Shown here piece by piece: positions 11,876 to 15,299 of a stretch of DNA of 36,052 nucleotides (positions are counted from its first letter, which is position 1; every line of letters begins with the position of its first letter). The translations under genes and the position numbers were made by a program. Source of the stretch: an uncultured bacterium (GTDB lineage: Bacteria; JADJOY01); NCBI GenBank assembly GCA_964392195.1, contig CAYMQR010000002.1, forward strand, positions 1-36,052, read 5' to 3'. Under the pieces are notes generated by a model, which made no database searches, had not been told where the DNA came from, and saw only the letters and a list, made by a program, of their open reading frames with translations.

Positions 11876-14659
11876 TCATTCCCCTCCCGGCTCGGGCGCG
11901 GGAGCGTCCGAGACCGGCCCAGCGAGCCATCCCGAAAAGTCGACCTGGCCCACGAAGCTCGTGGGATCGGGCTCGCCGCCCCACCAGTTGCCCTGCGCCA
12001 GCACGTACTGGGACGAGCGGCTCTGGATCGGCCAACCGTTGGCGTGGATGTTGTTCGCCTCGATCCGAGGCCTCGCCTGACCCTCGACCTCGATGCCGGC
12101 GGTGCCCGCGTTGGCGGTGATCGTCGAGTGGGTGATCTTGGGCTCGGCCGCGCCGCTCACCAGCACGCCGCTCTGCAAGCAGTCGCGGATCAGCGCGTGG
12201 GTGATCTCGCCAGCGCCGGCGCGTACCATCAGGCCGTACGCGGCGTGGCGGATGACCACGTGCTCGATCGAGGTCGGCTCGGTCGCCGCGCCGCGGATCT
12301 CGATCGCGGCGCGATAGTCGCCCGGCGCGACCGAGCGCTCGGCGCTGTCGAAGCGCACTGGCGCCGCGGCGGTCCCCGCCGCCCACAGCGCGCCACCCTC
12401 GACGACCAGCGTCGCGCCACGGCCCGCGTAAAGCAGCGTGACTCCCGCGCCGATCGTGACCCGCGCGCCCTCCGGGATCACCACCTCGCCACGCACCTCG
12501 TACGGCGAGTCGGCGGCAACCAGCAGCACCTCACCGGCGAGACGCCCCGTGAGCGCGCGCGGCGCGCTCACCAGGTCGCGCTCCTCTCCCTCCCCGGGTG
12601 GCGCGGTCAGGACACTCGCCACCGCCACCGGACCCGCGATCCGCGCCAGCACCCGCGCAGGCTGCGGGCTTCCCCACCAGCTCTTCGCGACCGCGATGCG
12701 CGGCCCGGACTGGCGCAGGTCGAAGCCGCCGTTGTCGGCGAACGAGTTGCCGTCGAGAACCGGCATGCCGTCCGAGAGCACACCGTCACCACGGTTGCGG
12801 GCGATCGTCGAGCCGCGCACCGTGGGCGACGCGCGTTCGACGCGCAGGCCATGGCGTCCGTTCGACTCGATCGTGCACGAGTCGAGGGTCGGCGCCGCGC
12901 CGTCGCGCACGACCGCCCCGTCCTCGCGGTTCGCCGTGATCGTCAGCGCGCGCAGCTCGCTCTTCGCGAACGGGCCCTCGACGACCAGTCCGGTGCCGTT
13001 GGCGGTCAGGCGGAGCTCGGAGAGCGCCGGCGACACTCCGACGACCGAGACTCCCACCTCGGCGTCGCGAACCTCGACGTGCGCGAGCGCGCTCTCGGCG
13101 CCGCGCAGCACCAACCCCTTCCAGCCGCTCGCTCCACCCCGGAACCGGATACCACGCGCCGCGAGGCCGCGCGCCGCGAGCGCGCCCTCCACCACGATCG
13201 CGCCGCCCTCGACCTCCACCGCGGTCCCCGGCTCCAGCTCCAGGCGCGCCCCGGACGGGACCACGAGGTCGCCCCGCACGTGATAGGGCGAGCCCGACTC
13301 CCACCACTTCACGACTCCCGCGATCGGGCCGCTCACCTCGGTGGCGCCGTGAGGACGCGGCACGACCTCGACGGCCGCCGACGGCTCGCTCACGTTGCCG
13401 GCGCGATCGACGGCCGAGACCCGCAGCCAGACCGGCTGCTGGTTGGCGAGCCCCTTCGCTTCGAGCTCGGTGAGCTCGGTGTCGGCGAGGGGAACGAATC
13501 CGCCCAACGGGGTCGCGCTCGTGTAGACCCGGTAGCCCGCGAGATCCGGCGCGGACGACGGCGCCTTCCACGCGAGCCTGGCCAGCCCGTCGCCGGCTGT
13601 GGCCAGCAGCTCGGCGGGCGGGGGCGGCGGCTGGGTGTCGATCGCGAACGGCCCGAGGGCGTCGTTCCACTCGGCGCGCACCCCCGACGCGCTCTCCAGC
13701 GCCGCGCTCACCACCACAGCGCTCGCCCCGTCGCCCGGGAGCACCGTGTAGGTGCCCTCGTAGCGTCCGGGCTCGGCGGTCGCCTCCTCCATCCGGATGC
13801 CGTCCTTCACGCCCCGCAGCGAAAACGACCCGTGCTGACCGGGATCGCCGGTGAGCACGACGTGCACCACGTCGCCCGCCTTGCGGACCTGGCCCGCCGA
13901 GTCGTGGAGCACCGAGACGATCCGCGGCGCCTTTCCCCCACCCACCACGGTGGGCTCGGGGATGCCGGTGACCATGCCGCGGAAGAGCTCGTCGGAGGCG
14001 CGCAGCAGCACCACCTGGCGCATGTTGAGGGCGGCGCTCGCCGCGCTCGCGAGCGCGCCCACGATCGAGGTCGGGATGTCGCCTTCCTGGAGGCGCGCCA
14101 CGTCCTGGCCTTCCCACACCAGCTCACCGCTGCGGGCGTCGATCAGCCGGACCTTGGCGCCCACGTTCACCAGCGCGCCCACCACCGCGTATATGCGATC
14201 GAAATCGGTGATGTGGCCCATCACCAGCCCATCCACGTGGAGCAACTCGCCGAGACGCTTGGGATCCTCGTTCTCGATCGCCTTGGGATCGGTGAGGCCG
14301 GCGGCGGCGAGACGCTGGTCGACGAGCGGCAGCTCGACGTCCTCGAAGTTCTTCGCGGAGAAGTGGTTGTAGAAGCTCTTGCGGACCGTGTCGGACGCCG
14401 CCGGGCTCTCGGTCTCGTTCACGAACGGCAGCACCGCCACCCGGCTCGGCAGCCGCGCCGCGAGCTCGGGGCTGAGCTTGGTCTTGCCCTCGTACGACAT
14501 CGTCGGGGCGTCGAGCTTCTCGGTCTTGACCAGCAGCGGGTTGCCCGAGCACGCCCAGGCGCAGGCGAGCGCAACGATCACCGCCGCCGCGCCGCCACCC
14601 CCACGCCGGCGCGGACTTCGCGTCTGGCACCGGGCTTGCGACCGATCTCGGCTTCCCAT
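11876..14659 (-). CDS. giant lipoprotein: DUF799/GNA1162-like N-domain + Ig-like region + fibronectin type III + two tandem right-handed beta-helix (PbH1/CASH, NosD-like) modules
   Basis: ATG 14659 gives MGSRDRSQARCQTRSPRRRGGGGAAAVIVALACAWAC, a basic n-region plus lipobox. The DUF799-like pattern is RVAVLPFVNETES...VDGLVMGHITDFDRIY...KVRLIDARSGELVWEG. FN3 is LARLAWKAPSSAPDLAGYRVYTS...LRVSAVDRAGNVSEPS. The module SPYxVRGxxVxPxGA...VVEGGxL...RF occurs twice. PbH1 repeats include NGRHGLRVE and NRGDGVLSD, and WWG motifs are present. Confidence 0.8.
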   Translation of the reverse strand: MGSRDRSQARCQTRSPRRRGGGGAAAVIVALACAWACSGNPLLVKTEKLDAPTMSYEGKTKLSPELAARLPSRVAVLPFVNETESPAASDTVRKSFYNHFSAKNFEDVELPLVDQRLAAAGLTDPKAIENEDPKRLGELLHVDGLVMGHITDFDRIYAVVGALVNVGAKVRLIDARSGELVWEGQDVARLQEGDIPTSIVGALASAASAALNMRQVVLLRASDELFRGMVTGIPEPTVVGGGKAPRIVSVLHDSAGQVRKAGDVVHVVLTGDPGQHGSFSLRGVKDGIRMEEATAEPGRYEGTYTVLPGDGASAVVVSAALESASGVRAEWNDALGPFAIDTQPPPPPAELLATAGDGLARLAWKAPSSAPDLAGYRVYTSATPLGGFVPLADTELTELEAKGLANQQPVWLRVSAVDRAGNVSEPSAAVEVVPRPHGATEVSGPIAGVVKWWESGSPYHVRGDLVVPSGARLELEPGTAVEVEGGAIVVEGALAARGLAARGIRFRGGASGWKGLVLRGAESALAHVEVRDAEVGVSVVGVSPALSELRLTANGTGLVVEGPFAKSELRALTITANREDGAVVRDGAAPTLDSCTIESNGRHGLRVERASPTVRGSTIARNRGDGVLSDGMPVLDGNSFADNGGFDLRQSGPRIAVAKSWWGSPQPARVLARIAGPVAVASVLTAPPGEGEERDLVSAPRALTGRLAGEVLLVAADSPYEVRGEVVIPEGARVTIGAGVTLLYAGRGATLVVEGGALWAAGTAAAPVRFDSAERSVAPGDYRAAIEIRGAATEPTSIEHVVIRHAAYGLMVRAGAGEITHALIRDCLQSGVLVSGAAEPKITHSTITANAGTAGIEVEGQARPRIEANNIHANGWPIQSRSSQYVLAQGNWWGGEPDPTSFVGQVDFSGWLAGPVSDAPAPEPGGE
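14625..14640 (+). promoter_or_regulatory. sigma-54 (-24/-12) promoter for the CsgG-like gene pair
   Basis: TGGCACcgggcTTGCg is an exact match to the TGGCAC-N5-TTGC core (GG at 14626-27, GC at 14638-39). It ends 18 nt before ATG 14658. It lies inside the first codons of the opposing gene 11876..14659. Confidence 0.55.
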
Positions 14660-15299
14660 GACGCGAGATCCCCGGCCCTCAGCGGCGCCCTTGCTGGCCA
14701 CGCTCGCCCTGATCGCGGGCTGCGCCACCGCTCAACCCCGCTACCTGACCAGCCCGACCCGGCTGTCGGTGGCCGTGATCGGCGTGCGCCCCGCCGTCAC
14801 CGACCCGCGCCTCCACGACCTCCGGATCGGCTTCGGGCTGGCCAGCCTCGTCACCGAGGAGCTCTACGATTCGGGACGCTTCCGCCTGAGCGAGATCGCC
14901 CCGGAGGTGCGCGGACGCCTCGATCGGATGACCGTCGACGCGTGGCAGCGCGCCACGCTCCCCAGCGAGCGCGACCTCGACCGGGTGGCGCGCGATGCGG
15001 GCACGGACCTGGTGGCCTTCGGCGAGGTGGTGCGGTTCGAGTCGCCCCGCAGCTCGCTGACGGTCGGGCCATTCTCCACCCAGACCAATCGCCTCGAGGT
15101 GGCGGTGCGGATCTGCATCCGCGACGCGGCGACGGCCGAGACCTGGTGCGAGCAAGGCGCCGGCAGCGCGTCGTCGAGCGCGACGGCCGCCGCGTTCGAG
15201 TTCCGCGGCGATCGAGTGGTCTTCGACCAGACCTCGGTGGGCAACGCGGTGGCCGAGGCCGTCGACGCCGCGATGAAGGCGCTGATGCAGCCACGTTGA
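14658..15299 (+). CDS. CsgG-like (COG1462-type) lipoprotein, paralog 1
   Basis: ATG 14658 gives MTRDPRPSAAPLLATLALIAGCATAQ, a classical lipobox. The CsgG-family-like core is LSVAVIGV...RIGFGLASLVTEELYDSGRFRLSE...DLDRVARDAGTDLVAFGEVVRFE. No Shine-Dalgarno is visible. A sigma-54 element lies immediately upstream. Confidence 0.7.
   Translation: MTRDPRPSAAPLLATLALIAGCATAQPRYLTSPTRLSVAVIGVRPAVTDPRLHDLRIGFGLASLVTEELYDSGRFRLSEIAPEVRGRLDRMTVDAWQRATLPSERDLDRVARDAGTDLVAFGEVVRFESPRSSLTVGPFSTQTNRLEVAVRICIRDAATAETWCEQGAGSASSSATAAAFEFRGDRVVFDQTSVGNAVAEAVDAAMKALMQPR

Follow-up and report, generated by a model that had tools for sequence, protein, structure and literature searches.

We analysed a stretch of 36,052 nucleotides (nt) from an uncultured bacterium, which forms contig C2 of its metagenome-assembled genome (MAG) and is referred to here as the window. 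At its centre of interest is a divergent gene pair whose start codons lie within the same four nucleotides. On the plus strand, an exact sigma-54 core at 14625–14639 stands before two genes for CsgG-like lipoproteins (14658–16043), and on the minus strand a gene for a lipoprotein of 927 amino acids (aa) occupies 11876–14659. Comparison with related sequences leads us to favour the interpretation that this core is a working sigma-54 promoter for a two-gene CsgG-like operon and that the 927-aa gene starts head-to-head with it from a shared CATG, an arrangement that we consider probable as a whole.

A conserved sigma-54 core beside two divergent start codons

The core comprises a −24 element, TGGCAC (14625–14630), a 5-nt spacer, CGGGC, and a −12 element, TTGC (14636–14639), matching the sigma-54 core at 10 of 10 positions. 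An initial annotation, made from the letters of the window, had picked out this TGGCAC-N5-TTGC on the plus strand as the only exact copy, and a scan of both strands of the 36-kb window bore this out. The CATG at 14657–14660 holds both start codons, the plus-strand ATG at 14658–14660 and the minus-strand ATG at 14659–14657, which overlap by 2 nt.

For comparison, we used three sister species (G001, G002 and G004), whose orthologues of the first CsgG-like gene, encoding 213 aa, share ~70% identity, and public independent assemblies at 98% (L017 and L018) and 88% identity (L019). Homologue scans of genome contigs and of metagenome contigs yielded one extra locus each, both of them duplicates (of G001 and G004). 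The promoter alignment consists of six distinct sequences, all from the genus of the window; the phylum itself is represented by six species-level genomes in the collection searched. The block CTGGCACC-N3-CTTGCG-N16-CATG is kept in all six sequences. All 10 core positions are invariant, together with a flanking C and G, while three of the five spacer bases vary and the gap from TTGC to ATG is always 18 nt (6/6). The invariant positions match those of the sigma-54 consensus. Left of the −24 element, no alignable DNA is common to the three gene arrangements found among these genomes.

In G001 and G002, the block sits in a 175-nt non-coding gap, and the LPP20-like gene that faces it is equipped with an ATG, a signal peptide and a GAGGAG ribosome-binding site of its own. 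Because the block is non-coding in these two species, its conservation cannot be explained by coding on the opposite strand.

The genome encodes the sigma factor, RpoN (PF04552, E = 2.3e-59), and contains 23 matches to the activator domain PF00158, 19 of them at E ≤ 1e-17. An exact core, conservation with a free spacer, and rpoN together with genes for bacterial enhancer-binding proteins (bEBPs) are among the features by which a sigma-54 promoter is recognised, and these three are found here. On this comparative evidence, we regard the promoter as very likely real.

By chance, ~0.02–0.06 exact motifs would be expected per 36 kb, as estimated from 3 hits in a reversed-sequence control and ~9 from base composition, each per 5.5 Mb. 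The genome to which the window belongs carries 13 copies of the bare motif, against 3 in its reversed control. Other exact copies precede lipoprotein genes as well as classic sigma-54 targets, namely genes for a type IV pilin and for PII/GlnB. A second short-spaced case lies on contig C388 (~687–1183, minus strand), where an exact sigma-54 promoter is placed 17 nt from the ATG of a gene for a 154-aa lipoprotein. This promoter is kept in all five relatives, another genus included (5/5); its distance from the ATG is 18 nt in G003 and ~40 nt in the rest. The same contig has a bEBP-domain match at 3065–3559.

Start codons and the predicted leader

The plus-strand start is the simpler of the two. 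ATG 14658, which the initial annotation had proposed as the start of a CsgG-like lipoprotein, is conserved in every homologue and followed by a conserved n-region and lipobox, yielding the product MTRDPRPSAAPLLATLALIAGC, and no alternative in-frame start lies near it. The −12 C of the core, at 14639, is 19 nt from the A of this ATG. Sigma-54 promoters usually have 11–13 nt between the −12 GC and +1, and from this geometry we infer a transcription start at ~14650–14652 and a leader of 6–8 nt, GGCTTCCC (14650–14657). Between TTGC and ATG, the window contains no GGAG, GAGG or AGGA, in agreement with the earlier statement that the plus gene has no Shine–Dalgarno sequence. Elsewhere in the genome, such sequences are widely used: in a rough count, Shine–Dalgarno 4-mers precede 35% of first starts genome-wide, compared with 10% in a control region. 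The same annotation had called translation of this gene near-leaderless. Of that description, the missing Shine–Dalgarno sequence holds, but the predicted 5′ end does not fall within the 1–2 nt of the start that define a leaderless transcript; by geometry, the transcript is short-leadered and not strictly leaderless.

Downstream of the start, a second conserved stretch lies in the signal-peptide region. The 9-nt block TCAGCGGCG at 14679–14687 (plus strand), which forms codons 8–10 (Ser-Ala-Ala) of the 213-aa gene, is identical in 6/6 sequences, while the signal-peptide region around it has diverged. It contains TCA, which accounts for only 1.3% of Ser codons in the genome. Its invariance and this rare codon suggest constraint at the nucleotide level, acting through translation or regulation. 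A search for RNA structure around the block gave no convincing conserved fold.

The minus-strand start required closer comparison. ATG 14659–14657 overlaps the plus ATG within cCATGa and gives MGSRDRSQARCQTRSPRRRGGGGAAAVIVALACAWAC, as first proposed. In the window and in the 98% relatives, the minus-strand reading frame is open up to GTG 14728, a codon that had been named beforehand as a start that would refute the shared one. This candidate is excluded by L019, which has a TGA four codons ahead of the shared ATG. L019 also has no ATG, GTG or TTG from the shared ATG to the lipobox. L019 thus leaves the shared CATG as the sole canonical start from which the signal peptide MGSRNRTQAGCQTRRAGGRGGLGAALLIAALACVAGC can be made. 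From the shared start, the conserved Cys is 37 aa away; the corresponding distance in the orthologues is 33 aa (G004) and 47 aa (G001 and G002).

Two further candidates were rejected. In the window, read by eye, GTG 14581 is the sole canonical start between ATG 14659 and the hydrophobic core; a signal peptide beginning there would lack an n-region, and L019 has CTG at this codon. A start at Met53, which follows the lipobox, would cost the protein the signal peptide that all orthologues have. We consider it quite likely, from these comparisons, that the 927-aa gene starts at the shared CATG. Both start codons in CATG are thus supported comparatively, and the earlier claim that no intergenic DNA separates the divergent genes stands.

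Sharing of the CATG has a direct consequence for the encoded protein. Codons 1–12 of the 927-aa gene (MGSRDRSQARCQ), which specify the signal-peptide n-region, are antisense to the leader and promoter, and the residues Q-A-R/G-C-Q are the antisense of TGGCAC..TTGC. Given this overlap, residues 1–12 would be dictated by promoter and leader in the window clade.

Rearrangement, proposed mechanism and rival explanations

The junction between the two genes is real and not a chimera. It is present in register in three independently assembled contigs from other sequencing runs (L017, L018 and L019), and in L019 the gene order matches the window on both sides at only 88% protein identity. The overlap is lineage-specific, occurring in the window genome and in its 98% and 88% relatives. 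In G001, G002 and G004, the 927-aa orthologue lies on other contigs, behind co-directional genes, where it has a strong ribosome-binding site of its own and another n-region. The gene facing the promoter differs accordingly: it is the LPP20-like gene in G001 and G002, an orthologue of an FlgT-like/phosphatase gene in G004, and the 927-aa gene, with the LPP20-like gene behind it, in the window clade. In each of the three arrangements, the break falls directly to the left of the −24 element. The alignments indicate that the envelope-lipoprotein cluster is modular and rearranged exactly at the upstream edge of the putative promoter. The CATG, including the C before the plus ATG, is present in all species, also in those without the overlap. 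Either direction of rearrangement is compatible with these genomes, in which the window clade is sister to the G001/G002/G004 clade and the sole outgroup lacks the genes.

In G004, the facing open reading frame (L003 2072–2300) shares its frame with the CATG, its complete lipoprotein signal peptide is preceded by no other ATG, GTG or TTG, and 55 aa separate the CATG from the Cys. Judging from this sequence, the G004 gene may also start at the shared CATG, or at a CTG, and a shared-CATG start may have arisen twice, in the window clade and in G004.

We propose the following mechanism. RpoN would recognise 14625–14639 and drive the two-gene operon of CsgG-like outer-membrane lipoproteins, with a bEBP opening the sigma-54 complex. 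Transcription would begin near 14650–14652, giving an mRNA with a short leader and no Shine–Dalgarno sequence. The first CsgG-like gene would be translated independently of a Shine–Dalgarno sequence, in a leaderless-like manner, and the second from its own ribosome-binding site. As the two divergent genes abut head-to-head, the promoter of the 927-aa gene would have to lie within the CsgG-like gene. When bound, a sigma-54 closed complex would cover roughly codons 3–15 of the opposing gene and could possibly interfere with leftward transcription. The start site, activator dependence, mode of translation and interference with opposing transcription are the parts of this scheme that we infer.

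A more far-reaching version is doubtful as a whole. It would have 35 bp serve twice, as sigma-54 promoter and leader on one strand and as 12 signal-peptide residues on the other, through rearrangement onto a pre-existing CATG. The closed complex would act as a roadblock or switch that makes two envelope modules reciprocal, and sigma-54 transcripts with short leaders and no Shine–Dalgarno sequence would be a regular feature of the phylum.

Several observations count against a sigma-54 promoter set against a shared start. Outside the core, two positions depart from the extended consensus: TGGCAC is followed by C where G is expected, and TTGC by G where A/T is expected. In three relatives, the bare motif shows hardly any enrichment (12–23 copies, against 10–14 in the reversed control). 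With such weak genome-wide enrichment, the rarity of the motif proves little by itself, and the case for function rests on its position and conservation. The initial annotation had proposed 14450–14560 as the place to look for inverted repeats typical of activator sites; the interval has a single palindrome (14457–14472), which is broken in L019. Across 14350–14700, only two weak palindromes were seen. The upstream 12-mers common to the three arrangements were attributable to chance, being GC-rich and inconsistent in position. No conserved upstream activator site was found, and the window contains no bEBP gene. Since the DNA upstream of −24 has been replaced between species, the activator may need no fixed site there, or it may work from downstream.

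The idea of mutually embedded promoters, put forward in the initial annotation, found support in one direction. The plus-strand sigma-54 core lies inside the 927-aa coding sequence, but no minus-strand promoter was detected in the CsgG-like gene: a scan of 14300–15400 for sigma-70 promoters and terminators on either strand found nothing, and no −10 element placed for a leaderless minus transcript was seen by eye upstream of ATG 14659. Neither divergent gene has a conserved Shine–Dalgarno sequence, and the predicted 6–8-nt leader is neither truly leaderless nor Shine–Dalgarno-led. Finally, the gene calls supplied with the contigs (L017 2521, L019 5843) place the start of the 927-aa gene at the equivalent of GTG 14581 or at Met53.

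These points bear differently on three other explanations. The promoter could be real and the 927-aa gene could start elsewhere, at GTG 14728, GTG 14581 or a non-canonical codon, in which case no start would be shared. The open frame to GTG 14728, the supplied gene calls, and the lack of a good Shine–Dalgarno sequence before ATG 14659, unlike the orthologues elsewhere with their GAGGAGG or GAGGGG, all agree with such a start. However, the TGA in L019 separates the GTG 14728 equivalent from the ATG, and the other two candidates fail on the grounds given above. Because either called start would strip the signal peptide from a lipoprotein family, the calls are likely systematic errors that stem from the head-to-head overlap, and we regard a start elsewhere as unlikely. 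Less likely again is that the block is a relic or the site of another factor, with the operon read from an upstream promoter of sigma-70 or extracytoplasmic function (ECF) type through a longer leader. The near-equality of motif and control counts in the relatives would fit this explanation, as would the missing enhancer site and nearby activator gene and a more distant homologue (L028, 46% identity), which has no sigma-54 motif. By contrast, the exact coincidence of the invariant positions with the sigma-54 consensus, with three spacer positions free to vary, speaks against it. An upstream promoter, moreover, would not be conserved across the non-homologous DNA upstream of −24; no sigma-70-like site was found in the scan, and rpoN and many bEBP genes are present.

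A chimeric contig is the least probable of the three. The MAG, of 72% GC, consists of 850 contigs at 75% completeness, and the 927-aa gene lies on other contigs in the three sister species, two points that would fit an artefact of assembly. Yet the junction recurs base for base in contigs from three other runs, one of them from an 88%-identical organism, and this makes a chimera exceedingly improbable. A working sigma-54 promoter set against a shared CATG is the arrangement that we retain as probable.

Neighbouring genes, known systems and significance

The first gene of the putative operon (14658–15299, plus strand) encodes a 213-aa lipoprotein of a divergent CsgG-like family, with a signal peptide and the lipobox LIAGC. 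The second (15306–16043, plus strand) encodes a 245-aa CsgG-like lipoprotein that matches Pfam PF03783 (CsgG) over the curated cut-off (E = 5.6e-5). It starts 6 nt downstream of the 213-aa gene with its own GAGGGA ribosome-binding site, and the two genes are probably co-transcribed. The 213-aa protein is a paralogue of its 245-aa neighbour. It has no Pfam or NCBIfam match of its own at E < 0.01, and its family comprises ~172 representative clusters, with 34 of 68 aligned members matching Pfam CsgG. Its AlphaFold model (predicted local distance difference test score, pLDDT, of 92) matches CsgG (4uv2 and 4uv3), PelC, FlgT and GNA1162 with E ~1e-6 and template-modelling (TM) scores of 0.4–0.57. 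On the strength of the paralogy, the family matches and this predicted fold, the label CsgG-like is justified at the superfamily level.

The 927-aa lipoprotein, encoded on the minus strand, combines in Pfam searches a GNA1162-like (DUF799) N-terminal domain, an FN3-like region and two beta-helix modules. Downstream of its gene on the same strand follow an LPP20-like gene (10832–11803), a gene for a TPR and SLH protein (9596–10831) and an open frame with phosphatase, phosphodiesterase and SLH domains (5071–9576). The six species-level genomes of this phylum are ~8 Mb in size with 72% GC. SLH-domain proteins amid many lipoproteins are suggestive of a two-membrane envelope.

Elsewhere in the window, a second sigma-54-like promoter is the single one-mismatch site, cGGCAC-N5-TTGC at 17466–17480 on the minus strand, with GG and GC intact. 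It lies ~155 nt upstream of ATG 17311 of a gene for a secreted protein (16089–17311), which converges on the CsgG-like operon and has the ribosome-binding site GGGAGGAG before that ATG. GGCAC-N5-TTGCTCG is conserved at the equivalent position in both G002 and G004.

Descriptions of sigma-54 promoters normally feature long leaders, enhancer sites upstream and clearly intergenic DNA. The promoter proposed here resembles the canonical ones (glnAp2, nifH and pspA, and the developmental and pilA promoters of Myxococcus) in the spacing of exactly one helical turn between GG at −24 and GC at −12 and in the TGGCAC-N5-TTGC core. The genomic setting is also alike, with rpoN, many genes for AAA+ activators, and envelope and pilus genes among the likely targets. 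It differs in the predicted ~6–8-nt leader, the lack of a Shine–Dalgarno sequence and of a recognisable upstream activator site, the divergence between species of the DNA that would hold such a site, and the position of the promoter inside an opposing coding sequence.

Leaderless and very short-leadered mRNAs are frequent in Actinobacteria and Deinococcus. Bradyrhizobium japonicum has 320 start sites with leaders of 0–10 nt, and the associated promoters are of sigma-70 type, with a TGnTA motif (PMC4842269). The case described here shares with leaderless mRNAs the missing Shine–Dalgarno sequence and a promoter placed directly against the start codon. Those described, however, use sigma-70-type −10 elements, whereas here the element is of sigma-54 type and the predicted 5′ end lies 6–8 nt before the AUG.

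Among bacterial gene overlaps, the head-to-head class is the rarest, and its cases are often errors of annotation. As in other divergent overlapping pairs, there is no intergenic DNA, and regulatory signals must sit in coding sequence. This pair differs from them in that the start is backed by the stop codon of a relative, and that one of the two promoters has been identified as a candidate. The gene content recalls clusters of CsgG, DUF799 (GNA1162) and LPP20, as all three lipoprotein types stand side by side in the window. In contrast to those clusters, the genes here are divided between divergent units, the GNA1162-like domain occurs as a fusion with FN3 and beta-helix modules, and the gene order beside the promoter differs between sister species. 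Among the papers searched, there was no description of sigma-54 promoters with such short leaders or of start codons shared head-to-head. The layout is unusual and built from known parts.

What is at stake is a mechanistic curiosity of an uncultured lineage. Automatic gene calls would miss the true start of the large gene. If confirmed, the arrangement would represent a natural sigma-54 promoter that needs no fixed upstream DNA and faces three different genes across sister species. It would also combine short-leader, Shine–Dalgarno-free translation from a sigma-54 transcript with a signal-peptide n-region encoded by the antisense of the promoter.

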